From contig NZ_JAYKGW010000040.1 of NCBI RefSeq assembly GCF_035285525.1, forward strand, positions 1 to 12,147: a stretch of DNA of 12,147 nucleotides. Direction: 5' to 3'. The DNA is from Okeania sp. Lineage in GTDB: Bacteria; Cyanobacteriota; Cyanobacteriia; Cyanobacteriales; Microcoleaceae. A model generated the notes under the pieces. That model was not told the origin of the DNA. It saw only the letters and a program-made list of their open reading frames with translations, and did not search any database. The position numbers and the translations under genes were made by a program. Below, piece by piece: positions 3-12,147 of this stretch. The stretch's first letter is position 1; every line of letters starts with the position of its first letter.

Positions 3-242
3 GGAACTGAACCTGTTTACGAACCTATTGAATTTGAGAGCAATGTCTTACGGTTAGAAAATGAGGCGGAATATGTATTTACGGCTTGAGCAGGAGCGGA
101 TAGTCTATCGGTAGTGGATGCTAGCAATCCTGAAACTGTGGTTAACAATACTAGCAGCGAAGATTTAGCCTTGGCTAAGATTCCTGTAGGTGTTGATGGA
201 GTGGATCGCCCAGAGTCGTTGGCCATAACTGGGGATAGTTGA
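3..242 (+). pseudogene. Upstream segment (cut by the window edge) of the large secreted protein. It is a YVTN/LVIVD-like beta-propeller repeat region, interrupted by an in-frame TGA and one frame off from the 239..3688 ORF.
   Basis: My frame-3 translation reads GTEPVYEPIEFESNVLRLENEAEYVFTA*AGADSLSVVDASNPETVVNNTSSEDLALAKIPVGVDGVDRPESLAITGDS*. The TGA at 87-89 sits inside one repeat unit (YVFTA-x-AGADSLSVVDASNP). The frame ends at TGA 240-242, overlapping the TTG at 239. The motifs resemble YVTN/LVIVD propeller repeats and the paralogous fragment at 7007..7744 (KYLYVSNPHLSGSGDVLIFDV; NPRGIAITGGD). Confidence 0.4.
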
Positions 243-3200
243 GCGAACCTTGGAATGTATCTTTCTATGGGCAAGAGGATGATTTTAATCCTAACCGGAT
301 TCTCACAGCAACTTGGCAAAGAGACCCTGATGATGGTATCGGTAAGTGGACTTATGATGGCGGTAAAACCTGGATTGAAGGTGCCAATACTAGCTTCACT
401 ATTCCTGAAAATAGAACCCTAACAGCAGGTCAGACTTATTATTGGGCAGTAGAAACATTCTCCGAAAACGAACTACACCCAGAATTAGAGTTTGGTGAGT
501 TGACCACAGAGATTCCACCTGCATTAAATGGCGACGATACTTTCCACAGCGTCAGCTTATTAACTCACGGTTTCCAGTTTCCCGGAACAGTTTCAGGAGT
601 TCCCGAACGCTACTACGACCTAGCTGACGGTATTGCTAATCTGGATTCCGATACTGATGGGTTGATTTTAAGGTATGAACCTGCCACTGGTTACTGGGTT
701 CCTGTGAACGAACAGGGACAAGTGTTGTTTTCACCCTCTGGCAATAATTATTTAGCCGAGCTACGAGAATTTATCGCACCGGAAAATCCTGCCCCAGGCC
801 AAATTAATTATCTAGAATCTCAAACTCCAGTGGTACTGCTGGCAGATTGGTCTCATGATTCGAGCATTCCTGATTCTGGTTTTTCTGAAGCTGCTGCGGA
901 TTCTTTATTTGCCTCCCTGGTACAGTTAGACCAGTTGTTGATGGATGAAAATAGCGATACCACACAAGGACCTATTCTGAGTTCTCCCCTACACTTGATT
1001 GGTTTCAGTCGCGGTACTGTTGTTAATAGTGAAATCGTTCAACGCTTGGGTACTTATTTCCCCGAAGCGGGAGGTAAACCGGGAACGGGGCAAGGAGACT
1101 TACAGATGACGACCTTAGACCCCCATGATTTTGACCAACCAGGGTTGTCGTTGTTGGGGATAAATAGTTTTACTGATTTCCGGGAGCCAAAAGTTCAGGT
1201 TTGGGATCATGTGACTTTTGCCGATAATTATTATCAAACTGTTCCTAATTTACTAGCTAATTCTTTGACTCCAGCAGGTCGAGATATTCCTAATCTGCCA
1301 GCAACCGAGTCTGGTAAGACAGCAACTGGGTTGGAGTTCCCACGACAGGGGTGGCGATCAGAATCTCCCAATCCTAATGCTCCCTTATTAGGGGAACCCG
1401 ATCTGTCGGTTTTCTTAGGTACTAATAAGAATGAACCTGACTACAACCGCAGTCGAGCAGGTTTTACCAGGGAAACCGATCCGTTTTATGGTTTGGGAGG
1501 AACTCATACACGAGTACCTAGTTGGTATGCGGGAACTGTAGATTTGGAGTCGGTTAATTTTCCCAATAATGAGCAGTCTGATGAGCATGGGATTTATCGT
1601 CAACGGAGTGATGGGCGTTATGAGCAGTTTTTCGATAGCTCGTTTTCCTATGGAGAAGGGGTGACAAATAAACCGCGAGTCACTCCGTGGTACAGACCAG
1701 ACCACAAGCAAGCAGGTTTTAATGATAGTGCTGAGGATGCACCGAGTGAAGGTATAGGTACGGGTTGGTTTTATTCAGTGCTGGGTGGGGGTAAAGATTT
1801 GCGGACTCAAACTGGTGTAGATAAAGTGCCTGTTGATTTTGATAATACTTATGACGCGCAGATGCGGGGTGATTTTGCTGTGCCGACTTTGTTCAATGGT
1901 AATTTTGATGCGGTGTTTAATCCTAAAGGTACGTTTCGTAAGAGTGTTTCTCAAGCTATTCCGGGATGGTCTTTTCATGGTGGTGGGTCGGCAATAATGA
2001 CAAAACAGTTAGTGGATTTGAAAGGTGTGAGTACCTTGACAGAACACTTGAAAAATGTAGGTAACGATCCGACTTCAAAGGAGTATCAGACAGATTATGC
2101 GTTGCAACTCCGACCAGGGGATTCTATTACCCACAATCGCTTCGTGGTTCCCGACGAGGGTGTGCTGCGCTTCGATTTACACGTTCCTAACGCTGCCTCA
2201 AATCCACGTTTACCTACTAGCAGTATCAGAACCTTCATCAGAGCCAGCGATTCAACTAACTGGCAGCCTTTGACACCGACATTTACTTACAAAGCGCAAA
2301 ATCCAGCAGAACGAGGTGAAAATGCAGTGGGTTACTATGACTTTGTTAACGGACAATACATCGATCCCTACACTCGTCAGATAGATTACGGTCAAGAGGG
2401 ATTTGAAACCTTCCATATAGAAATCCCTGACGAACTGCGTGGCAAGTCTGCTCAACTGAGATTCGACTTAGGTAGCAGTAGTAGTCCAGTTTATCTTGAT
2501 AATGTCTTCTTCAAAAGTCAACATTTGATGTTAGGCAATCCCAGTTTTGCCAAACCTTCAGAAAATACTCACCGCGAGAATTATTTGATTGAAAAACCAC
2601 AGTATTCCTTGTCTTACAACGATGCGATTAAAGGTCCTAATTGGGTGAGTTGGCAGCTCAATCAGTCTTGGTTGGGAGGGTTAAATCGTATAGATATAGA
2701 ACCACGCACACCACCAGAAGGGTATAACGATCTCTTTCCCCCAGGCTTTGATGACAATTTCCCCGATTATCCTGATGGCGTTCGACCTGTTGATGGTACT
2801 TTTAGTCCTGTAAGTCGCAACAGTTTTCCATGGTCTTTAGATGACGAGCTTCCCGAAAATTGGGTAAAAACCCAAGGGGTTGATTACCTGATGAATAACC
2901 AAATTACTCCTCGACGTCTCGATCGCGGTCACATGGTTCCAGTAAGTTATCGAACTCGCAGCTTTAAAGATGGTTTTTCAACTTATCTAACAACAAATAT
3001 GCTCCCGCAACTTTCATTCGTTAACCGAACCGCAGGACCTTGGTTCCGGCTCGAAAGAGAAACCAGACTTGCGGTTGAAGGTAATAGCGATCTTGAGTTT
3101 AATATCATTGCTGGTGGAGTTGGTTACGACCCCACTCGGCAAGGACCAAGGGGAGACGATATCAGGTATCCAGCAGGACATCCTTTTGAAAATCATCCAA

Positions 3201-3688
3201 ATCCAGTTCCAGGAGTAGTCCAAAACTTTGTTGCCACGCAACAAAATGAAGAGACAGGGGAATGGGAGTACGTTCAAGATAGCAATGACAGAATTGTAAT
3301 CAACTTACGTGGCTCTAACGAATGGATTGCCAATCCCAAACAAATAGGAGTTCCTGACTACACTTGGAAGGTTTTCGTACCTTTGCATCCCGGTCAGGGA
3401 GCAGCCGACATCACGCAGAACACCCCTGTAACTGCCGTTATCTTCCCCAATGCTGACCCCAGGGGATTTCCAACGGTAACAATAGAGGACACTGAGTTTT
3501 ATCGGATACCATTGCCCAATGGCACGGAATTAACAATTGACAGTAACTCTGTGGGTGATTGGACTCAGTACGCTATCAGCGTCAGGGAGTTAGAAGATAT
3601 AACCGGCTACGACTTTTTCTCGGAGGTGCCCCGGGACATCCAAAACATTATCGAACCAAGAACCAACAGAGAGTTGTTCCTTGCTTAG
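239..3688 (+). CDS. Large multidomain secreted hydrolase or toxin-like protein. Domains in order: Fn3-like segment, lipase-like alpha/beta hydrolase, beta-sandwich (CBM/lectin-like) domain, C-terminal DNA/RNA non-specific endonuclease (NucA/Serratia nuclease family). The 5' end is probably not native and continues upstream in another frame.
   Basis: The open frame is uninterrupted for 3450 nt. The only start at the 5' end is the TTG directly after a TAG, and the first in-frame ATG is about 230 codons in. Lipase-like signals: SLLTHGF (HG at nt 566-571), VVLLADWSH, LHLIGFSRGT (GxSxG, Ser codon at 1007-1009), TLDPHDFD. Beta-sandwich signals: FNGNFDAVFNP...IPGWSFHGGG...LRFDL...VYLDNVFF (about nt 1880-2518). 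Nuclease signals (about nt 2522-3685): YSLSYNDAIKGPNWVSWQL, RRLDRGHMVP (nt 2921-2932), YLTTNMLPQ (Asn at 2996-2998), GPWFRLERETR, VPDYTWKVFVPL, VRELEDITGYDFFSEVPRDIQ. These are collinear with Serratia nuclease motifs (DRGH, N119, W..LE, YWKVIF, VDEIEKRTG). Confidence 0.85.
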   Translation: MSEPWNVSFYGQEDDFNPNRILTATWQRDPDDGIGKWTYDGGKTWIEGANTSFTIPENRTLTAGQTYYWAVETFSENELHPELEFGELTTEIPPALNGDDTFHSVSLLTHGFQFPGTVSGVPERYYDLADGIANLDSDTDGLILRYEPATGYWVPVNEQGQVLFSPSGNNYLAELREFIAPENPAPGQINYLESQTPVVLLADWSHDSSIPDSGFSEAAADSLFASLVQLDQLLMDENSDTTQGPILSSPLHLIGFSRGTVVNSEIVQRLGTYFPEAGGKPGTGQGDLQMTTLDPHDFDQPGLSLLGINSFTDFREPKVQVWDHVTFADNYYQTVPNLLANSLTPAGRDIPNLPATESGKTATGLEFPRQGWRSESPNPNAPLLGEPDLSVFLGTNKNEPDYNRSRAGFTRETDPFYGLGGTHTRVPSWYAGTVDLESVNFPNNEQSDEHGIYRQRSDGRYEQFFDSSFSYGEGVTNKPRVTPWYRPDHKQAGFNDSAEDAPSEGIGTGWFYSVLGGGKDLRTQTGVDKVPVDFDNTYDAQMRGDFAVPTLFNGNFDAVFNPKGTFRKSVSQAIPGWSFHGGGSAIMTKQLVDLKGVSTLTEHLKNVGNDPTSKEYQTDYALQLRPGDSITHNRFVVPDEGVLRFDLHVPNAASNPRLPTSSIRTFIRASDSTNWQPLTPTFTYKAQNPAERGENAVGYYDFVNGQYIDPYTRQIDYGQEGFETFHIEIPDELRGKSAQLRFDLGSSSSPVYLDNVFFKSQHLMLGNPSFAKPSENTHRENYLIEKPQYSLSYNDAIKGPNWVSWQLNQSWLGGLNRIDIEPRTPPEGYNDLFPPGFDDNFPDYPDGVRPVDGTFSPVSRNSFPWSLDDELPENWVKTQGVDYLMNNQITPRRLDRGHMVPVSYRTRSFKDGFSTYLTTNMLPQLSFVNRTAGPWFRLERETRLAVEGNSDLEFNIIAGGVGYDPTRQGPRGDDIRYPAGHPFENHPNPVPGVVQNFVATQQNEETGEWEYVQDSNDRIVINLRGSNEWIANPKQIGVPDYTWKVFVPLHPGQGAADITQNTPVTAVIFPNADPRGFPTVTIEDTEFYRIPLPNGTELTIDSNSVGDWTQYAISVRELEDITGYDFFSEVPRDIQNIIEPRTNRELFLA

Positions 3689-3765: not shown

Positions 3766-4482
3766 TTAGAGTTTTCCAAAGGCTTCGCCATCTAAATAAG
3801 CATCTACCGCAAGCCTCCCGTCGGGCAAAATGGTGTGGTGAAGTTGAATATACTCAAAAGAAGGGGAAGCAAAATTGATCAGACCTCTGAAATCGACATT
3901 CATAAAGTAAATCTCGTTTCCAGTCATTCCTTGGAGATCGGCGTTTCGGAAATTAGAGTTTTCAATGGTAATATCCATCATTTGCACATTTCTTAAAGTT
4001 GCTCCTTCAAAATTGCAGTTTTGGATATTACCTTCAGACATGAAACGACACCCGTTAAGATTAGCTCTCTTTAAATTTGTATTCAACAAGCCAAGTAAGA
4101 CAGCTCCTTCAAGAGTCGCATCTTCCAGGTCGCATCTTTCAAAAGCGCCTTCACTTAGGCTGGCTTCTTTCAAACAAGCTCTTCTGAAGTTGCTGTCTTC
4201 AATCCAATCCAATCTGGCTTGGCTCAAGTTTGCTCCTTCAAAGTTGCTATTTTTAATCGAACTAAACCTGGCTTGGCTCAAGTCAGCACCTTCAAAGTTG
4301 CTATTTTTGACGCTACAGTAGGTTCCTCTCAAACAAGCTCCTTTAAAGTTGCTATTTTCAATCCCACTCAAAAATTTGGCCTCGCTCAAGTCAACCCCTT
4401 CGAGATCGAGATTGACAAGAGGAGTATTTCTAAATTCTCTTTGCCCTTGGGCATAGCATCTAAGTAGTTCTTTTGCATCCAT
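3766..4482 (-). CDS. Pentapeptide-repeat protein (PRP1), convergent with the nuclease gene.
   Basis: The sequence shows A(D/N)LXX-type repeats throughout, for example NFEGADLSQARF, NFEGANLSQARL, CDLEDATLEGAVL, NFRNADLQG. The N-terminus MDAKELLRCYAQGQREF and the C-terminus TILPDGRL are both typical of cyanobacterial PRPs. I prefer the ATG at 4482 (MDAKELL, matching the MNAEELL start of PRP2). The ORF track's TTG at 4497 is the alternative. Confidence 0.85.
   Translation of the reverse strand: MDAKELLRCYAQGQREFRNTPLVNLDLEGVDLSEAKFLSGIENSNFKGACLRGTYCSVKNSNFEGADLSQARFSSIKNSNFEGANLSQARLDWIEDSNFRRACLKEASLSEGAFERCDLEDATLEGAVLLGLLNTNLKRANLNGCRFMSEGNIQNCNFEGATLRNVQMMDITIENSNFRNADLQGMTGNEIYFMNVDFRGLINFASPSFEYIQLHHTILPDGRLAVDAYLDGEAFGKL
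4214..4321. repeat. Intragenic tandem duplication, 2 x 54 bp, inside PRP1 (encodes IKNSNFEGA(D/N)LSQAR units).
   Basis: Copy A is 4214-4267 and copy B is 4268-4321. They share perfectly conserved blocks ctggcttggctcaagt (16 nt) and ttcaaagttgctattttt (18 nt). A weaker third unit follows with a 51-nt offset (cctttaaagttgc at 4340). Confidence 0.85.
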
Positions 4483-4554
4483 AATTTTCTTTGACAACTC
4501 ATTGATACAATTTTAGGAGCTTTTCCTTTTAGTGTAAATATATTAACTAGAACC

Positions 4555-5037
4555 ATGATCGAGAAAACGAGCCGTAAATTCAATCAAGACGAACGCCTCT
4601 GGCGCATTGACGCTAAATGGGGAACTGTCGTGGATGGAAATGAAACCGACGATTTAATTCAAGTGCTGTGGGATGGAGAGTATAGCCCCCTACCTACTCC
4701 CACCATTGCCGTTATTAAGACTTCAGAAAAAGAACAATTTCTTGAAGAGATGCAGCAATTTTATCCTCCCTTTAGCTATTGGTGGCGACTCCAGGAAACC
4801 AAGGATTTCAAGGTAATTTTTGTTCAAAATGGTCCAGACGAAGATTCTTACTCCACTTTTGGTATCCATGCCCAATTTGAGGACTTAATCTATAATTTTA
4901 CTATTAATAATTTCAGCATTCCGCACAGGGGAGTGATTTCACAGGTGCGCATTTCTTTGAACAAAAAAAGAAGTTGGTTTGAGAAGTATAAAAAGAATTA
5001 TGCTTTTTTTGATGAAAACGGGCAAGTAGAGCTTTGA
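4555..5037 (+). CDS. Hypothetical 160-aa protein with no recognised domain. It is divergent from PRP1 and convergent with PRP2.
   Basis: ATG-initiated ORF with no overlapping competitor. I see no signal peptide or TM segment. The sequence is not repeat-like and I recognise no family (no resemblance to the NuiA sequence as I recall it). Confidence 0.6.
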   Translation: MIEKTSRKFNQDERLWRIDAKWGTVVDGNETDDLIQVLWDGEYSPLPTPTIAVIKTSEKEQFLEEMQQFYPPFSYWWRLQETKDFKVIFVQNGPDEDSYSTFGIHAQFEDLIYNFTINNFSIPHRGVISQVRISLNKKRSWFEKYKKNYAFFDENGQVEL

Positions 5038-5071: not shown

Positions 5072-5707
5072 CTAAACTAAAATTTTCCAATAGTCTTTAA
5101 TATACTCTCCTTCGGGAGTAGTAATAGTGTCAATAATGCACTCAGACCATAAATTGGAGCCAGCGATCCTGGCTCCAGTCAGATCGACATTTCCTAAGCT
5201 AGTTTCACAAAAAATTGCCCTCTCCAGATTAGCATTTTTCAAGCTAACATCCTGGAACATTGCTTGGCCTAAATTGGCTTCTATTAACAAGGCTTCATCA
5301 AGGTTGACTTGGAGTAAAGAAGCCTCCACAAGGCAGGAATTTTCTAAATTAGCTCTCTTCATGTTAGCATTACTAATTTCTATGTTTCCTAATCTTGCAT
5401 TTTTAAGATTGACTTCTTCCAGGTTAATATTTTTTAGATAGGCATCAAAAGAAACTTCCGTCAAATTAGCGTGATTTAGATTTACTTCCTCTAGTTCCGC
5501 ATACCTTAATCTAGCTTGAGTAAAATTGGCGCAACTTAAATTTACTCCTTTGAATTTCACTCTGTACAGTTTAGCTTGAGTGAAGTCGGCGTTGGTAAAG
5601 TTAGCTGCTTCAAGATGACAATCTCTTAATTCGATCCCTCTTAAGTCAGCACCAGTAAAATTCCTTTCTCCACCACTGTAACGTCTGAGCAATTCTTCCG
5701 CGTTCAT
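5072..5707 (-). CDS. Pentapeptide-repeat protein (PRP2).
   Basis: MNAEELLRRYSGGERNFTGADLRGIELRDCHLEAANFTNADFTQAKL... is a regular pentapeptide register over about 170 aa, with a TPEGEYI tail. By hand count it has about 30 D/E against 21 K/R, so it is acidic. Confidence 0.9.
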   Translation of the reverse strand: MNAEELLRRYSGGERNFTGADLRGIELRDCHLEAANFTNADFTQAKLYRVKFKGVNLSCANFTQARLRYAELEEVNLNHANLTEVSFDAYLKNINLEEVNLKNARLGNIEISNANMKRANLENSCLVEASLLQVNLDEALLIEANLGQAMFQDVSLKNANLERAIFCETSLGNVDLTGARIAGSNLWSECIIDTITTPEGEYIKDYWKILV

Positions 5708-6219: not shown

Positions 6220-6921
6220 CTAATCAATCCCGTCGGAAGTAACAACGCTTCCGTCGGGCATGATAGTTTGCCTGTAGTATTCGAGAATCAGAACAGAACT
6301 TGCTCCGCGAAAGTCAGCAAATTCAGCATAATTATCATAACCGTCACAGTCTTCAAACCGTACATTTTGAAAGCAGGTATAGTCAAAGCCACTTCCGCAA
6401 ATTTTCGTTCTTACGAAGATAGCCTCTGTGAAATTACATTGCTCAAAAACGCATCTATCAATCTTTGCCCCACAGAGGTTTACTCGTTCTAGGTTCGCTC
6501 TATCAAAGCCACAATAAAACAACACGGTTCCTTCTAGATTGACATTTACCAGACAAGCCATATCAAAAAAGCTCTCCAAAATATTGGCTTCTTGAAGGTC
6601 TGATCCGTTGAGATTAGCGTCAGATAGACGGCAATCATATAATTCAGCACCCCTGAGATTTGCCCCCTTGAGGTTAGCGTCAGATAGCTCGCAGTTCCAC
6701 AATTCAGTACCTCTGAGATTAGCACCTTCAAGATTAGCATCATCTAATACAGCAAACTTGAGTTTAGAACCACTAAAATTGATTCCCGGAAGGTGTGCCC
6801 CTTTTAGTTGGAGACCTTCCGAACGGTGTTCCCCTTGCAACTCCAGCCCAGAAAAATCTCTTTCACCTGCTGCATATCGCTCCAGTAATTTTTTAGTTGT
6901 TATCTGCATTATGCGTGTCAT
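6220..6921 (-). CDS. Pentapeptide-repeat protein (PRP3), convergent with the orphan nuclease fragment.
   Basis: TKKLLERYAAGERDFSGLELQG is followed by GANLRGTELWNCELSDANLKGANLRGAELYDCRLSDANLNGSDLQEANI..., with a TIMPDGSVV tail. GGAGAG lies 6 nt upstream of the ATG at 6921 (minus sense: taggagagtaactATG). Confidence 0.9.
   Translation of the reverse strand: MTRIMQITTKKLLERYAAGERDFSGLELQGEHRSEGLQLKGAHLPGINFSGSKLKFAVLDDANLEGANLRGTELWNCELSDANLKGANLRGAELYDCRLSDANLNGSDLQEANILESFFDMACLVNVNLEGTVLFYCGFDRANLERVNLCGAKIDRCVFEQCNFTEAIFVRTKICGSGFDYTCFQNVRFEDCDGYDNYAEFADFRGASSVLILEYYRQTIMPDGSVVTSDGID
6608..6727. repeat. Intragenic tandem duplication, 2 x 60 bp, inside PRP3, equal to 20 aa (four pentapeptides).
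   Basis: Copy 1 (6608-6667) and copy 2 (6668-6727) match at 46 of 60 positions by my hand alignment. They encode GANLRGAELYDCRLSDANLN and GANLRGTELWNCELSDANLK. Confidence 0.85.
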
Positions 6922-7006: not shown

Positions 7007-7744
7007 GTGCTTAACAGTGGTAATGTGGGAATCATCCAAGACCCATTAGGTGAGAATCCTGAGTTGGTGGCAGCGACTCGACCACTTCCAGACCATTTAA
7101 CTCACGATTTGGTGTTGAGTAATGATGATAAGTATTTGTATGTTTCTAATCCCCATTTGAGTGGTAGCGGTGATGTGCTGATTTTTGATGTGGAGGAGAT
7201 AATCGAGACGTTGTTATCCCCAGGGGATTATGAGATTGATGTTTTAGACCGGGGTGTGGGTTCTCCATTTTTTGATGAGAGTACGGCACGGATGGTGACG
7301 GAGAATGATTTTGAGTTTGTGCCCATTGATGATATTAATCCGGATATTAGTATAGCTGCTGATTTTGAGATTCTGCAAGAGGACAGGCCGCGTAATCAGT
7401 TTGTGTTTGGAGTGCCCGATGATACGACCAGGGGTCCGGTGGCGATTGGAGGGAATCCACGAGGGATTGCGATTACTGGTGGTGATTGGTTGGATTTGAC
7501 AGGGCCAACATCTACAACTGAAGACCTCTTACCAGAGTTTAAATGGGAGTTTGAGTATCCTGATGAAATTGAAGAGATCAACCTATTTGTGAGCGTGTTT
7601 GAGCAAAATGAGGGTTTACTGCCATGGGATAATTTTGTGGATTTATCCGGTCCTAATGGCAACCCATTTCTCGCAGACCAGGGACTGATAAGGAAGGCAG
7701 AAGGAAAAGAAAGGTTCTTTGGGATAAGGTTTTTTTATAACTGA
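7007..7744 (+). pseudogene. Isolated internal fragment of a YVTN/LVIVD-like beta-propeller protein, paralogous to the region at the window start. It lacks a native start and ends in an apparently unrelated tail.
   Basis: The frame opens immediately after a TAG (7004-7006), with only a GTG as start. It contains DDKYLYVSNPHLSGSGDVLIFDV and VAIGGNPRGIAITGGD (compare EYVFTA.AGADSLSVVDASNP and DRPESLAITGDS at 3..242), followed by an Fn3-like start (LPEFKWEFEYPDEIEEINLFVSV). The last ~20 aa (GLIRKAEGKERFFGIRFFYN) are low complexity. By my hand counts, GC is like that of the large gene (~48 percent). Confidence 0.5.
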
Positions 7745-7768: not shown

Positions 7769-7815
7769 ATCTGGTTCTCCTTGTTTCTTAAAGAGGGAAA
7801 GTTTGTAGTTGGTAG

Positions 7816-7847
7816 AGGGTTTGGAGACTAAACTCCTACAGTTTTTT
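7816..7847 (+). terminator. Intrinsic-terminator-like hairpin plus T6 within repeat copy 1.
   Basis: AGGGTTTGG, loop AGA, CTAAACTCCT form 9 pairs (including one G:U) with one bulged T, followed by ACAG and TTTTTT (7842-7847). Confidence 0.4.
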
Positions 7848-7895
7848 CACGAATGATTTCTTGTTTCTTAAAGAGGGAAAGTTTGTAGTTGGTAG

Positions 7896-7928
7896 AGGGT
7901 TTGGAGACCAAATCCCTACAATTTTTTT
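7896..7928 (+). terminator. Intrinsic-terminator-like hairpin plus T7 within repeat copy 2.
   Basis: AGGGTTTGG, loop AGA, CCAAATCCCT form 9 Watson-Crick pairs with one bulged T, followed by ACAA and TTTTTTT (7922-7928). It sits where the plus-strand fragment and minus-strand trmH converge. Confidence 0.45.
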
Positions 7929-8647
7929 CACGAATGATTTATTCTTTTTTTCTTCCTTCTTTCTTCTTCCTTCAAGAAGAAAAATTTCTTCTCAATAAGT
8001 TCTCCTGCTTTAATAGATTTGCGCAACCAATCTAATTCTAAATCTAATTTTTCTGCTTCAGTTAATTCCCAATTATGATGTTCTTTTTTGAGGCGGTTAA
8101 TTACATCATATAAACATAGAGCAACACTAACAGAAATATTAAAACTTTCGCTAAATCCCATCATGGGAATTTTTACTAATACATCTGCATAGTTTTGAGC
8201 ATATTCTGATAAACCACTAATTTCTGAACCAAACATTAATGCTACTTTTTTGTTGACAGATAATTGTTCAATAGTTATCTCTTCTTGATAGAGAGTTGTT
8301 GCTGCGATTGTATAACCTTGACTTTTTAATTTATGCAAACATTCATCTGTATTATTTATGCCTTGTTGATTATAACGATGTAATGTTAGCCAACGATCTG
8401 AACCAATGGTTACACCATGAGTAACTGTAAAAATATTTTTATTCTCTACAATATGCACATCTTGTACACCAAAACTATCACAACTTCTGAGGACGGCACT
8501 AGCATTGTGGGGTTGATAAATATCTTCTAAAATAACAGTAATGTAGCGGGTTCGTTGCTGTAAAACTGATAAAATTTTTTGCCGACGGGCGACACTGGCA
8601 AAGTTACTTAAGTAAGTAATTAATTCTTGTTTTTCTTGTAGTTTCAT
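7928..8647 (-). CDS. trmH: tRNA (guanosine-2'-O)-methyltransferase, SpoU/TrmH family.
   Basis: All three SpoU motifs are present: LEDIYQPHNASAVLRSCDSFGV (compare E. coli TrmH KPHNVSAIIRTADAVGV), ALMFGSEISGLS, and IPMMGFSESFNISVSVALCLYD. The size (239 aa) fits TrmH, with a K/E/R-rich C-terminal tail. Confidence 0.85.
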   Translation of the reverse strand: MKLQEKQELITYLSNFASVARRQKILSVLQQRTRYITVILEDIYQPHNASAVLRSCDSFGVQDVHIVENKNIFTVTHGVTIGSDRWLTLHRYNQQGINNTDECLHKLKSQGYTIAATTLYQEEITIEQLSVNKKVALMFGSEISGLSEYAQNYADVLVKIPMMGFSESFNISVSVALCLYDVINRLKKEHHNWELTEAEKLDLELDWLRKSIKAGELIEKKFFFLKEEERRKKKRINHS

Positions 8648-8702
8648 GCACCATTAATATTAACTAGGGTTTGCGCTCAAAAGTCATTTTGTTAGGGGAG
8701 AG

Positions 8703-8729
8703 AGTAGGGAGTAGGGAGTAGGAAGTAGC
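8703..8729. repeat. STRR-like tandem heptamer repeat, (AGTAGGG)n, about 3.8 copies.
   Basis: AGTAGGG AGTAGGG AGTAGGA AGTAGC, read directly from the sequence. Heptameric short tandem repeats are characteristic of heterocystous cyanobacteria. Confidence 0.8.
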
Positions 8730-9242
8730 TAATAATTAGGATTTAGGGTAGTTGTAAAAGAGGTTCTCATTTATAATTGCCCCTTAGTTTTTCTGTCATA
8801 ATTCCCCGTTTAGGTTAATTTTTTCTTTTCGGCTTTATTAACCGAAAATTTGGTACTTTTTTAGTACCTAAAATTCTTCAAACCTTTATTTTATTTATAA
8901 ATTATTTAATATTTTATCGGTAAGCTCTAACTATACAGCGATGCGTCCTAGGGAACAGGGAACAGTACCCTAAGAAAGGAAGAAAGGGTTTCAGTATTTA
9001 AAATGTCCGCGCCCTTTGCTGCAACTGCTATTTAGCATATCAGCAATAATAAATATAGATTAAAAATCAGGAAAAAGCTAAATTTATAGCACTATAAACA
9101 AACTGTTAGGAAATTGATGAAAATGATAATAATTGACTTCAATATTTGCAGTTTATAGCTTCATCATATTGATCTAATCTAATAAATGAATATTTAAAAT
9201 TATAGCAATCATATTTCATTTGTGAGAGTTTAGTGGTAATTT

Positions 9243-9270
9243 AGGAGTTAGAATTCAGGAGCTAGAAGTC
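9243..9270. repeat. 2 x 14-bp tandem repeat in the long intergenic region.
   Basis: AGGAGTTAGAATTC and AGGAGCTAGAAGTC match at 12 of 14 positions. Confidence 0.7.
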
Positions 9271-9405
9271 AAAATATGAAATGTTTTTGATTGATATTAA
9301 TCGTTCTTAAATATCTCATAAGTCATTTTTGATTGCTATATTATTACTGATGATTTTTGAGTTGAAGTTGTTCTTCTTTGTTTGTTTTCATTGAGAAAAA
9401 TATTT

Positions 9406-10152
9406 TCATTTTTTCATTAATTTTCTCCTGGCTTTATAAGGCTTTACCAGTTCCTCTAAGGGGACTTTTCTGGTTTGGTTATTCTTCACATTCACCTGAT
9501 AAATAATATTATTATCAACATCTAATCCTGTTAGCCAACCACTTCGAGGATGATATGCACTGGTATCAATATCTAGCCAACCTTCTCCAGAAACTAATTC
9601 ACCAGGTTCAACATCATCGAAAGTAAAAGTTATAGTGTGACCTACAATAATCAATTTATCAGAAAAGTAGGGTTTTTCCATAGAATGAAATTGATCGCGA
9701 ATCCAACAATATTCCTGGGAAGCTTGCATTTTAATAGGTAGTTTGGGATTAATCCCGGCATGAACTAACCAAATATCTCCTAAGTCTAGATATAGAGGTA
9801 GAGATTGCATCCATTCTAAATCATCATAAGGCATAATTCCTGTATCTCGATAACTTTCCACAGTTTCGAGGCCACCACTGTGATACCAACCTTGCCATAC
9901 TTCATGCTTATTATGTTTATTTCCTGTATTTGAGAGAGCTTGAATCATCATGTGTTCATGGTTCCCTAAAATACACTGATAAGGGCTTTTTCTGACAAAT
10001 TCTACCACTTGAGAACTTTTCGGACCTCTATCAATTAAGTCTCCTAAAAAATATACCATATCGTCTTTGCCAGGAGCTATCGCTTCTAACAAAGTGATTA
10101 AGGCATCATAATGCCCATGTATATCTCCAATGATAATACGTCTATTCTTCAT
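9406..10152 (-). CDS. Metallophosphoesterase, PPP-family serine/threonine phosphatase or ApaH-like.
   Basis: Canonical PPP motifs appear in order: IIGDIHGHYD, YFLGDLIDRGPKS, LGNHEHMM, then LVHAG and VGHT further on. Confidence 0.85.
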   Translation of the reverse strand: MKNRRIIIGDIHGHYDALITLLEAIAPGKDDMVYFLGDLIDRGPKSSQVVEFVRKSPYQCILGNHEHMMIQALSNTGNKHNKHEVWQGWYHSGGLETVESYRDTGIMPYDDLEWMQSLPLYLDLGDIWLVHAGINPKLPIKMQASQEYCWIRDQFHSMEKPYFSDKLIIVGHTITFTFDDVEPGELVSGEGWLDIDTSAYHPRSGWLTGLDVDNNIIYQVNVKNNQTRKVPLEELVKPYKARRKLMKK

Positions 10153-10372: not shown

Positions 10373-11134
10373 TTAGTTACTTAAAGCACGCAAAAACTTT
10401 TGAATTTCTGTTAATAATCTTTTCCGTTTTGGCGGAGCAGTTAATGTCTCAGAGGACGAAGTAGAGTTATCTGCATTAGTTGCACCAGTAGCTTCAGCTA
10501 AAATTATATCTACTTCATCTCCGAGTGGTTTCTGTGGTCTTTCTGCAATTAATTTATACTGGCCATTTTCTAAGAGCAAAATTTGCCAGGGGGAAGGATA
10601 ACAACGATATAATGCTGCCTCACCTAGAGACCTGATGTAATAGCAAGATTCAATAGTTTTGATAAATCTTTCCCTAACTTGACGTGCGGCATAACCAATT
10701 CCCACAATAGATACATCCTCTAATTTAGGGATCAACATAATAACTGGGCGATCGCCAGCCAGATTAGACAATTTTTCAGCTTGGGCCACTTCTACAGCAG
10801 AAGGAGCTATTAATAAAAAACATTGGTCTTCGGGTTGAACTTTTTGGTCAACTGGAGACCTACTTGTGCCAATATCTTCTATTTTAAATGTGGCATCTTG
10901 CCAATCTCGTCTGGCTAAAGCTGCTGCTCCAGTGTCAGGAAAAAAGACTTTAAGCTGAGTACCTATTTCTAGTAAAGCAGGAATAAATTGTTTTGCCAAA
11001 GATTGAGCTTGAAGTTCGATATCTGGAACAATTATTTCAATTTGGAGTCTTTTATGACCATCTTGAAGAGCTGCTTTTGTAGCCTCCATTGCCTGGGCGA
11101 TCGCTTCGTTTATATCATTGGGTAATTTAGTCAT
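10373..11134 (-). CDS. Conserved cyanobacterial/plastid-lineage hypothetical protein, probably DUF1995 family.
   Basis: The 253-aa ORF has an N-terminus LPNDINEAIAQAMEATKAALQDGHKRLQIEIIVPDI that resembles DUF1995 proteins as I remember them. It contains two HIP1 sites. The family assignment is from memory and has not been searched. Confidence 0.6.
   Translation of the reverse strand: MTKLPNDINEAIAQAMEATKAALQDGHKRLQIEIIVPDIELQAQSLAKQFIPALLEIGTQLKVFFPDTGAAALARRDWQDATFKIEDIGTSRSPVDQKVQPEDQCFLLIAPSAVEVAQAEKLSNLAGDRPVIMLIPKLEDVSIVGIGYAARQVRERFIKTIESCYYIRSLGEAALYRCYPSPWQILLLENGQYKLIAERPQKPLGDEVDIILAEATGATNADNSTSSSETLTAPPKRKRLLTEIQKFLRALSN
10748..10755. repeat. HIP1 (highly iterated palindrome) octamer GCGATCGC.
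   Basis: Exact GCGATCGC read in the sequence. Confidence 0.95.
11097..11104. repeat. HIP1 octamer GCGATCGC.
   Basis: Exact GCGATCGC read in the sequence. Confidence 0.95.
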
Positions 11135-11165: not shown

Positions 11166-11193
11166 TTGACAGAAGATTAAAAAAAAATATCTT
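11166..11193 (+). promoter_or_regulatory. Candidate sigma70-type promoter for the 11244 ORF.
   Basis: TTGACA (11166-11171), a 16-nt A-rich spacer, then TATCTT (11188-11193), about 50 nt upstream of the ATG. This is a pattern match only. Confidence 0.3.
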
Positions 11194-11243: not shown

Positions 11244-12110
11244 ATGACACAAAATCATCCTTTTGAAAAATCAACTGAGGAACTAAAAGAATATTTACAA
11301 ATTAGTCAAGTTGAAGGAAATTATGCAGTTAATAACTCCATGGAACCTGTAACTACTCTGGCAATAGGAGAAGAAGGTGGAAATGGTTTTACAACTGAGG
11401 TATTAGGAGAAGCAGGTGGTGCAACTACTTTAGCATTAGGAGAAGAAGGTGGCGATTTTCCTGATGCAACTACTTTAGCAATAGGGGAAGAAGGTGGAGA
11501 TGGTATGACAACTGAGGCATTGGGAGAGGAGGGTGGTGCAACTACTCTGGCAATAGGGGAAGAAGGTGGAGGTTTCAATGAAGAGATTTATCTGGAATTT
11601 TATCCTGAGGTTAATGTTGCTATCAATAGAGGAGAATTAAGTTCTGGTTGGGAACATTACCTTCAGTTTGGAGTATTTGAAGCTGAACGGATAGGATTTT
11701 TTACAGGTACTAATAGTAATGATATTATTACTGCTTTTGGCAACAATAACAGAATTATTGGTGTTAATACTCTAGGATATGATTTGGTAAATGATGAAAT
11801 AATTCCTAATAGTTTTGGTGTGGGAGAAATTGATGTATTAATTGGTAGTTTTGGAGTAGGAACAACAGACAAATTCATACTGGGTTTTTCTCAAGAATCG
11901 CCTTTTTATGTTGGGTTGGGAAGTTTCGATTTTGCTTTAATTAAAAACTTTGAAGTCGATTTCGACGAAATTCAATTATCAGGAAATTTAGATGATTATA
12001 GTCTGGAAATTATTAATAACTCGGTGAATATATCTATCCAATCGGGAGATTTAATTGCGATTATAGAAAACTTACCATCTCTAGATAATTTGAGGATTAA
12101 TTTTGTTTAG
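11244..12110 (+). CDS. Repeat protein: N-terminal 6 x TT-x4-EE-GG motif array followed by a degenerate RTX-like C-terminal module of the kind seen in cyanobacterial Ca-binding proteins.
   Basis: ATG-initiated 288-aa ORF. Residues 37-109 read TTLAIGEEGGNGF TTEVLGEAGGA TTLALGEEGGDFPDA TTLAIGEEGGDGM TTEALGEEGGA TTLAIGEEGG. Then comes YLEFYPEVNVAINRGELSSGWEHYLQFGVFEAER. The C-terminal part has GTNSNDIITAFGNNNRIIGV, GEIDVLIGSFGVGTTDKFILG and FDEIQLSGNLDDYSL, typical of cyanobacterial hemolysin-type Ca-binding-like proteins. Confidence 0.8.
   Translation: MTQNHPFEKSTEELKEYLQISQVEGNYAVNNSMEPVTTLAIGEEGGNGFTTEVLGEAGGATTLALGEEGGDFPDATTLAIGEEGGDGMTTEALGEEGGATTLAIGEEGGGFNEEIYLEFYPEVNVAINRGELSSGWEHYLQFGVFEAERIGFFTGTNSNDIITAFGNNNRIIGVNTLGYDLVNDEIIPNSFGVGEIDVLIGSFGVGTTDKFILGFSQESPFYVGLGSFDFALIKNFEVDFDEIQLSGNLDDYSLEIINNSVNISIQSGDLIAIIENLPSLDNLRINFV
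11352..11570 (+). repeat. Imperfect tandem nucleotide repeats (33-45 nt units) encoding the TT-x4-EE-GG motifs.
   Basis: The recurrent block is actact(c/t)t(g/a)gca(a/t)tagg(a/g)gaagaaggtgg. Coordinates were derived from codons 37-109 of the ORF. Confidence 0.85.
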
Positions 12111-12147
12111 TTAATTGGGTGGATTTCATATTTGCCAAAATACTTGA

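Follow-up and report, generated by a model that had tools for sequence, protein, structure and literature searches.

Graspetides are studied as compact, genetically encoded protease inhibitors and as scaffolds for macrocycle engineering, but little is understood of how they are exported and finally processed. The best-described group 2 representative comes from Plesiocystis pacifica (precursor PsnA2, macrocyclase PsnB; group 2/2a; PDB 7DRM-7DRP). According to the PsnB study, the plesiocin core reads TTxxxxEE, occurs in four copies in PsnA2 and acquires two Thr-Glu macrolactones per copy, while a core segment called the "AIGEE region" superimposes well within the active site of the enzyme. The residue numbering of that study (Thr32, Glu37, Glu38) implies that the plesiocin core is TTxAIGEE. 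In a second group 2 system from Rheinheimera, RcpA/RcpB together with RapA (PNAS 2024, PMC11626197), up to five waters are lost, elastase is inhibited, and the esters were demonstrated by -18 Da losses and methanolysis. Here, we describe a 12,147-nt stretch of Okeania sp. DNA, which is the whole of contig NZ_JAYKGW010000040.1 and is hereafter called the window, and in particular a 288-amino acid (aa) protein encoded near its end, which contains six cores of the plesiocin type. We propose, with a probability of about 0.8, that this protein is the substrate (precursor) of a plesiocin-type group 2 ATP-grasp macrocyclase. It is most likely a group 2-type graspetide precursor in a new architecture, which has no double-glycine site and carries a predicted beta-roll tail. 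The features that the original prediction had given for group 2, a TTxxxxEE core with two Thr-Glu esters per repeat and protease inhibition, agree with the published work.

The window protein resembles the PsnA2/PsnB system in its tandem, multi-repeat TTxxxxEE motifs with A-I-G-E-E and, judging from the relatives of the window, in the single ATP-grasp gene that adjoins the precursor gene and whose product conserves Arg213 and most leader-pocket residues. However, the window clade has HPF instead of LFIEDL, Asn instead of Arg101 and a cyanobacterial host, and the window protein has six repeats instead of four and a predicted 179-aa folded tail instead of a short C-terminus. The TTxxxxEE core and a single cognate ATP-grasp enzyme are likewise shared with the Rheinheimera systems, whose precursors are short and are cut at a GG site by the peptidase domain of the RcpC transporter, whereas the window protein lacks a GG site, and near its relatives no RcpC-type gene is found. 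Corallotide (group 15) and group 41 (ACS Chem Biol 2026, PMC13097080) are also large multi-repeat graspetide substrates with folded domains, but they have a Lys-Asp isopeptide core, other tailoring enzymes and an N-terminal helical domain. The chemistry, core and enzyme family discussed below are already known from group 2 graspetides, and large precursors have precedent (PMC13097080). In the literature searched, we found no description of the HPF leader class, the beta-roll-tailed architecture or the twin-arginine variants presented here, which published mining data sets may nevertheless list, and none that links a graspetide with RTX, type I secretion, twin-arginine export, Trichodesmium or Okeania.

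The window protein contains an array of six group 2-type cores

Translation of the putative precursor gene places its cores as follows.

11244..12110, forward strand: putative precursor gene, 288 aa (leader, six cores and beta-roll tail), from the open reading frame (ORF) list and its translation; stop codon at 12108-12110
11352..11381, forward strand: core repeat 1, TTLAIGEEGG, aa 37-46 (translation)
11391..11420, forward strand: core repeat 2, TTEVLGEAGG, aa 50-59, degenerate (translation)
11424..11453, forward strand: core repeat 3, TTLALGEEGG, aa 61-70 (translation)
11469..11498, forward strand: core repeat 4, TTLAIGEEGG, aa 76-85 (translation)
11508..11537, forward strand: core repeat 5, TTEALGEEGG, aa 89-98 (translation)
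11541..11570, forward strand: core repeat 6, TTLAIGEEGG, aa 100-109 (translation)

The array is exactly as originally claimed from the bare sequence, with six TTxxxGE[E/A]GG units at aa 37-109 (nt 11352-11570), exact TTxxxxEE spacing in five of the six, GG after every unit followed by a linker of 1-5 residues, and a 36-aa N-terminus without repeats ahead of it; the window end at 12147 likewise falls 37 nt past the stop codon. Three of the six units read exactly TTLAIGEE, and A[IL]GEE was scored in four of the five exact TTxxxxEE units. Unit 2 is the deviating one, having Val at position 4 and Ala in place of the second Glu, and one ester at most could form in it. From the Thr and Glu content of the protein itself, 0.019 TT....EE matches would be expected, compared with the 5 seen, and none occurs in the other five reading frames across the whole window. 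The array is not a chance product. Its DNA does have a 117-nt period, corresponding to a three-unit block, that is repeated 1.9 times at 85% identity (Tandem Repeats Finder), so the copies are partly recent duplicates rather than independent occurrences, and we regard the retention of the motif in homologues from many phyla as the real significance test. By type of segment, the protein contains AIGEE three times, ALGEE twice and VLGEA once. In the AlphaFold2 (AF2) model of the full protein, aa 1-111 are disordered, as expected of a core region, with a predicted local distance difference test score (pLDDT) of 25-33 over aa 1-110. The full-length model was too poor for use (pLDDT 47.9), and the fold search described below was made with a model of the tail only.

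A total of 267 homologues of the 288-aa protein were found at E<=1e-3, the full-length ones occurring in Okeania, Dapis, Hydrocoleum, Trichodesmium and Microcoleaceae with 49-68% identity to the window protein, while Pfam and NCBIfam scans of the protein gave no family match. Among its close relatives, the window protein is the shortest (288 aa versus 350-488 aa) and has the fewest repeats, six versus 7-13 in most of its closest relatives. Lying exactly over the repeat array is an 85-aa antisense ORF (11321-11578, reverse strand), which most likely arises from the repetitive, GA-rich nature of the coding strand rather than being a gene.

Most array genes are accompanied by a graspetide-type ATP-grasp gene

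The genes upstream of the array gene in the window encode a DUF1995 protein (10373-11134), a calcineurin-like phosphoesterase (Metallophos; 9406-10152) and a SpoU methylase (7928-8647). The same DUF1995-Metallophos-SpoU genes are found upstream on the opposite strand in two loci on long contigs, one from Dapis (L001) and one from Okeania (L003), and we therefore consider the three loci to be orthologous. In both L001 and L003, the next downstream gene encodes a 301-aa RimK-family ATP-grasp protein, located 0.6-1.7 kb past the stop codon.

A wider survey was made by scanning one genome per species from 185,579 species for the core pattern, which yielded 292 relatives; the best 79 loci (L007-L085) were retrieved with flanks of up to 8 kb and searched by tblastn with four neighboring ATP-grasp proteins. 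An ATP-grasp homologue was present in 70 of the 79 loci, always within 1860 nt of the repeat gene (median 320 nt), and was downstream on the same strand in 33 of these 70 and upstream and divergent in 31. The hosts of the 79 loci span at least six phyla and include Cyanobacteria, Planctomycetota, Myxococcota, beta- and gamma-Proteobacteria, Gastranaerophilales and Thermoanaerobaculia. Since the array-bearing proteins are otherwise unrelated in architecture, it is the array itself that travels with the enzyme. Among the nine loci without an ATP-grasp match, the contig ends within ~0.6 kb on the expected side in four and one flank is short in two, while the remaining three (L070, L073 and L078) have flanks of >7 kb on both sides and still gave no tblastn match; L070 is the second locus of a genome whose other locus does have a ligase.

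For the 18 tail-bearing relatives (L007-L024), a ligase was found in 15, and the contigs of the other three end within 0.6 kb of the stop codon. Every same-clade tail-bearing relative with enough flank (14/14) has the ligase downstream, 0.06-1.8 kb past the stop codon, and the more distant L024 has it upstream. The search for an ATP-grasp ligase that had been suggested as a check, in the neighborhood and by co-occurrence across genomes, was thus positive in 70/79 loci and in 14/14 flanked same-clade relatives. A metagenome scan added two 2.9-kb contigs of relatives only, with 50-54% identity. One genome, Okeania hirsuta PAB10Feb10-1, carries two systems: L013, which is of the tail-bearing HPF type with 12 cores, and L080, a 285-aa precursor with 11 cores and no HPF leader that stands beside a distant ATP-grasp gene (33% identity to the HPF-type enzymes).

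Among solved structures, the neighboring enzyme is closest to PsnB

The best PDB match of the Dapis ATP-grasp protein is PsnB (7DRM, E 1.2e-32, residues 3-292), followed by MdnC (microviridin), CdnC (chryseoviridin) and MdnB (microviridin). In NCBIfam, it scores best with TIGR04187 ("ATP-grasp ribosomal peptide maturase", 4e-42) and next with MvdD and MvdC, aligning end to end with these models. The positions named for PsnB were mapped with a PDB-chain offset of 20, which reproduces 13/13 named residues and validates the numbering. Arg213, which according to the PsnB study holds the Glu that is phosphorylated first and does so in all groups, is conserved as Arg204 of the Dapis orthologue. Lys172, Thr180, Arg192, Leu196 and Val201 are conserved as well, and the leader-pocket residues Tyr171, Ile193 and Phe203 have conservative replacements. 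The same study assigns binding of the second Glu to Arg101, in group 2a only. Taken as a whole, the sequence comparison points to the cyanobacterial enzymes as a sister clade of group 2a rather than as members of it.

Membership in the microviridins (group 1) was also considered and rejected. Both the TxKxPSDx(D/E)(D/E) core and the PFFARFL leader are absent, MdnC and MdnB are weaker matches than PsnB, and the relatives have one ATP-grasp gene, compared with the two enzymes of microviridins.

An HPF leader pairs with its own enzyme clade

Two features precede the cores.

11244..11351, forward strand: leader-like N-terminus, aa 1-36, hydrophilic, from sequence and its conservation among relatives in alignment A1
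11256..11264, forward strand: HPF motif, aa 5-7, a proposed enzyme-recognition element, from its conservation in alignment A1

The leader of the window protein begins MTQNHPFEKSTEELKEYL. Alignment A1, which comprises 14 homologues, shows no variation at H5 and F7 and at least 90% conservation at P6, and an M-x(1-6)-HPF start also heads the precursors of Nostocales, Planctomycetota, Cellvibrio and Pleionea. No signal peptide was found in the leader of the window protein or of its clade, and the clade has neither a double-glycine (GG-type) site before the first core nor a twin-arginine (TAT)-like motif. The ATP-grasp enzymes are 44-100% identical to the four queries at loci with an HPF start and 27-41% identical at loci without a called HPF, all four queries having been taken from HPF loci. 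The exceptions are L036 and L054, where the identity is 58% without a called HPF and the starts are probably mis-called. Loci without HPF have myxobacterial "FVKYELP" leaders or beta-proteobacterial "SLFIxDL" leaders (the latter in L044 and L062), or belong to Gastranaerophilales. Leader type and enzyme clade therefore travel together, as would be expected if HPF were a docking motif. From these patterns, HPF is probably the docking site for the ATP-grasp enzyme, and Phe7 may take the role that Phe15 has in LFIEDL of plesiocin. With the conserved HPF leader and its matching enzyme clade, the same core has a second leader/enzyme pair, which is useful for dissecting leader recognition.

A single hypervariable core position

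The 538 cores of the 79 loci have one hypervariable position only, position 3 of TTxAxGEEGG, which often differs between the repeats of one protein. It is occupied by L in 37%, M in 20%, Q in 15% and K in 12%, then by Y, E, R and F. Positions 9 and 10 are G in 97% and 90% of the cores, respectively, even though the search pattern left them unconstrained. In the window protein, position 3 (aa 39, 52, 63, 78, 91 and 102) is L, E, L, L, E and L. Plesiocin is an inhibitor of elastase (16 nM) and chymotrypsin (7.5 nM), and an engineered variant called "Psn-LLLR" gains trypsin inhibition. The name of this variant implies one specificity residue per repeat, and by analogy position 3 may be the residue that determines protease specificity in a P1-like manner. 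A PDB sequence search with the leader and cores, a short and low-complexity query, found no match to the PsnA2 peptide chain.

The C-terminal tail is modeled as a beta-roll

The 179 residues that follow the array (11571-12107) comprise two predicted sub-modules.

11574..11684, forward strand: helical sub-module of the tail, aa 111-147, FNEEIYLEFYPEVNVAINRGELSSGWEHYLQFG (AF2 model)
11697..12107, forward strand: beta-roll sub-module of the tail, aa 152-288 (AF2 model and Foldseek)

Of the 18 genome-scan relatives, 14 have a tail of 181 aa, as does one of the two metagenome contigs. The tail-only AF2 model, the best of five and built from 32 sequences, has a pLDDT of 85.3 and a predicted template modeling score (pTM) of 0.82, with helices at tail residues 4-10, 12-19 and 26-32 followed by stacked short strands. 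A Foldseek search of this model against the PDB returned CylK as the best match in five entries (E 2e-5 to 2e-4, 24-26% identity), and then RTX block V of CyaA, the R-modules of AlgE, an RTX-like domain from Aeromonas, and the RTX domains of serralysin and lipase. The study describing CylK reports that its N-terminal domain consists of a short helical component on an asymmetric, Ca2+-stabilized beta-roll with a single GXXGXD motif, and that it resembles RTX domains that fold outside the cell. The modeled tail has the same layout, in which short helices rest against an asymmetric beta-roll. It retains two RTX-like turns, GTNSND (relatives have GTNGND) and GVGEIDVLIG, with the consensus GTN(G/S)ND (Asp invariant) and GxGExDxLxG (D88 and L90 invariant) in alignment A2, where D51, G83, D88 and L90 are the invariant tail residues. 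The confident model therefore presents the tail as a parallel beta-roll with a short helical pack, closest to the Ca2+-binding N-domain of CylK. The description of the tail as "RTX-like" by the original prediction holds at the level of fold, where the beta-roll matches the CylK N-domain and RTX domains, but fails at the level of family, where Pfam gives no RTX match; the tail alone in fact matches nothing in Pfam or NCBIfam down to E<=10.

The likeness to the CylK N-domain (7RON, 7ROO, 7FH6) and to RTX domains (CyaA block V, AlgE R-modules) consists in the predicted helical element on an asymmetric beta-roll, the GxxGxD-type turn and, for CylK, 24-26% identity to the window tail over ~170 columns. 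However, the CylK domain is N-terminal and, together with a beta-propeller, contributes to an active site, whereas the window tail stands alone at the extreme C-terminus, and unlike RTX domains it has no tandem nonapeptides detectable by PF00353.

An exhaustive HMMER search of 1.8 billion proteins found 1132 proteins with relatives of the tail module, a count that supersedes a word-indexed search which, owing to its prefilter limit, gave only the tail itself and one fragment. The module also occurs inside RTX and cadherin-like proteins, and no Pfam family covers it. Giant proteins such as P0121 (3127 aa), P0122, P0123 and P0124 contain as many as 15 tandem copies of the ~170-aa module. Its first ~38 residues (FNExxYLxxYPDVxxAVxxGxxxSGxxHYxxxG) are a separate and widespread tandem repeat, and many HMMER matches are limited to tail residues 2-38, examples being P0136 (a glycosyltransferase) and P0147.

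The same core occurs in several architectures

Among the array-bearing proteins, the core is found in five settings.

Architecture a: 89-150 aa, HPF leader, many with a double-glycine-type motif at the leader end
Architecture b: Planctomycete proteins of ~300 aa, with a twin-arginine signal (e.g. SRRVAL and a hydrophobic stretch) after HPF, a ~200-aa domain and C-terminal cores
Architecture c: proteins of myxobacteria, bearing up to 17 cores
Architecture d: peptides with LFIxDL leaders
Architecture e, the window clade: ~35-aa HPF leader followed by 2-13 cores and then the conserved tail

The short HPF precursors of Nostocales, Cellvibrio and Pleionea (L025-L031, L057, L064, L067, L070, L074-L077 and L081) share with the window protein the HPF start, the TTxAxGEEGG cores and an ATP-grasp enzyme 44-60% identical to that of the window clade, but are only 89-150 aa long, are in many cases of the double-glycine type, and have no tail domain. 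Within this set, 89-121-aa precursors with a double-glycine-type leader end (EMEQVSGG, ANKVVGG) are found at L057, L064, L067, L070, L074, L076, L077 and L081, and by sequence these look like classical released graspetides. In the Planctomycetota-type precursors at L026, L035, L042, L045, L047, L051, L056, L059, L071, L072, L073 and L078 (gene near locus position 8001), a twin-arginine motif (S/T-R-R-x-x-L and a hydrophobic stretch) comes within ~20-40 residues after HPF. One HPF-leader/TTxAxGEEGG cassette thus appears to have been plugged into three export solutions, namely a double-glycine leader, a twin-arginine signal and a beta-roll tail, and the TAT route would fit a substrate that is already cross-linked in the cytoplasm.

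Proposed maturation and competing explanations

In the pathway that we propose, the 288-aa protein would be made in the cytoplasm and the 301-aa ATP-grasp ligase would dock on its N-terminal leader, probably via the invariant HPF. The ligase would then phosphorylate both Glu residues of each TTxAxGEE unit and join them to both Thr hydroxyls, yielding a ring-within-ring hairpin. Since five of the repeats could each receive as many as two esters and TTEVLGEA no more than one, about 11 dehydrations would be expected, and by analogy with plesiocin the product would contain nested lactones, about 11 in all. Because there is no double-glycine site, the product would not be freed by a double-glycine peptidase and would stay on the C-terminal Ca2+-dependent beta-roll, which could serve export in the style of type I secretion and/or folding and anchoring outside the cell. 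Given the modeled fold and the absence of other export signals, we infer that export and/or extracellular Ca2+-dependent folding would proceed via the tail with the array still attached. Outside the cell, the array could act as a multi-headed serine-protease inhibitor whose target is set by the variable third residue. More tentatively, and with rather less than even odds in our estimation, graspetide chemistry may here modify an exported protein rather than produce a small peptide, the array of stapled hairpins serving as an attached multi-specific protease shield on the filament surface of bloom- or mat-forming marine Oscillatoriales (Okeania, Trichodesmium, Dapis and Hydrocoleum) and exported by a type I route.

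If the proposal is correct, the fusion would show that PsnB-like enzymes act on protein-sized substrates and that the cores work without release from the protein, and it would provide a natural display or secretion handle. The hosts include ecologically important marine cyanobacteria related to Trichodesmium and Okeania, in which inhibiting proteases outside the cell could affect grazing, pathogens or colony-associated bacteria. Motif- and length-limited miners for RiPPs (peptides made by the ribosome and then modified post-translationally) may miss long precursors of the window type.

Several observations weigh against reading the protein as a macrocyclase substrate of this kind, or against parts of the pathway. 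The presence of the partner gene just past the contig end in this genome is extrapolated from relatives, and the scores of the ATP-grasp protein stay under the narrow curated cut-off of every NCBIfam maturase model. The window leader lacks LFIEDL, the motif of the plesiocin leader with its Phe15 anchor. In the enzyme, PsnB Arg101 aligns with Asn93 of the Dapis protein and Arg72 has no aligned Arg, the latter in a poorly aligned stretch, and because of these differences the ring order or topology could differ from that of plesiocin. Protease inhibition by the window protein would follow by analogy only. No peptidase, ABC exporter or type I secretion gene was found within 10 kb in L001 or L003, and the leader cleavage site and the peptidase or peptidase-containing ABC transporter (PCAT) gene that a strict definition of a RiPP calls for were both absent from the window clade (genes checked within 10 kb in L001 and L003). 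For the tail, high confidence was attained by a single AF2 model out of five, the other four being worse, the query-normalized TM-scores to CylK are modest (0.43-0.49), and the Pfam RTX model PF00353, which describes GGxGxDxUx nonapeptides, has no match in it even at E<=10.

These points have to be set against other explanations of the same protein. The array could be modified by the ATP-grasp enzyme and yet be neither an inhibitor nor a released peptide, in which case the stapled hairpins would serve as a stiff spacer that resists proteases within a Ca2+-binding protein that stays intact outside the cell or at its surface, for example one that contributes to the sheath, adhesion or motility of filamentous cyanobacteria. 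Such a role would suit a clade that has no GG leader-cleavage site and a tail that is more conserved (181 aa in 14/18) than the number of repeats (2-13). It would also suit a tail module that recurs up to 15 times in giant proteins and is found in RTX and cadherin-like proteins, which are typical surface proteins, and a neighborhood without a protease or transporter gene (L001, L003). The core, however, is nearly identical to that of proven inhibitors, its single hypervariable position behaves like a specificity residue, and the short GG-leader precursors with the same core and HPF in other cyanobacteria look like released peptides; we consider a pure spacer unlikely. Far less credible still is an ordinary secreted repeat protein without cross-links, in which TTxAxGEEGG would be purely a structural or Ca2+-binding repeat. 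This was the alternative that accompanied the original prediction, and it is in keeping with the failure of any family model to recognize the protein, with acidic Gly-rich repeats adjoining a Ca2+-binding-type tail and with a window in which no ligase is visible. What speaks against it is the graspetide-type ATP-grasp gene found within 1.9 kb in 70/79 loci of at least six phyla, where the array is the only common feature, together with an enzyme closest to PsnB and a motif equal to the experimentally cross-linked plesiocin core. Given this co-occurrence, enzyme likeness and core match, a plain structural repeat is not supported, and we would assign it hardly any weight.

Another explanation would accept the graspetide origin of the locus and regard this copy as orphaned or decaying, with the ligase lost or displaced and the array shrinking. 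The window protein does have the fewest repeats and the shortest length among close relatives, the second Glu of repeat 2 is lost, the contig stops exactly at the start of the spacer that would lead to the ligase, and L070, L073 and L078 have no nearby ligase despite adequate flanks. On the other hand, the ORF is intact from the leader to the last residue of the tail with HPF and five perfect cores kept, and the 117-nt super-repeat at 85% identity speaks for recent duplication rather than decay. In addition, all 14 flanked same-clade relatives have the ligase downstream, and a contig break within a spacer that varies from 0.06 to 1.8 kb is plausible as an assembly effect. Decay of the locus is therefore very improbable in our view, and a substrate of a group 2-type macrocyclase remains the reading that we prefer.

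Other features of the window

One candidate regulatory element lies upstream of the precursor gene.

11166..11193, forward strand: promoter-like site TTGACA-16-TATCTT, 51 nt 5' of the start codon, from a consensus match only (10/12 positions)

The consensus scan gave 10 such sites in the region versus 4.6 expected, and is weak evidence for this one. Scans of the window with Rfam and for tRNAs and terminators found nothing relevant.

At the other end of the window, a 1149-aa protein is encoded at 239-3688 (forward strand), with a DNA/RNA non-specific endonuclease domain in its last third only (aa 771-1132) and no Pfam family match in its first 770 residues. Three pentapeptide-repeat genes follow within 3.2 kb, all on the reverse strand (3766-4497, 5072-5707 and 6220-6921), and are interleaved with two forward-strand ORFs that have no family matches (4555-5037 and 7007-7744). 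The gap that separates the ORF at 7007-7744 from the SpoU methylase gene contains 2.1 copies of an 80-nt unit with 92% identity (7780-7947), each copy holding a short inverted repeat (GGTTTGGAGAC...AAAC); this unit was not found in the 87 fetched loci and has no Rfam match. Finally, ~760 nt without an ORF of at least 60 aa separate the SpoU and phosphoesterase genes (8648-9405), a gap that is much shorter in the Dapis and Okeania loci and that contains short tandem repeats, namely GAGTAGG repeated 3.9 times at 8702-8728 and others at 8950-8987 and 9238-9271.

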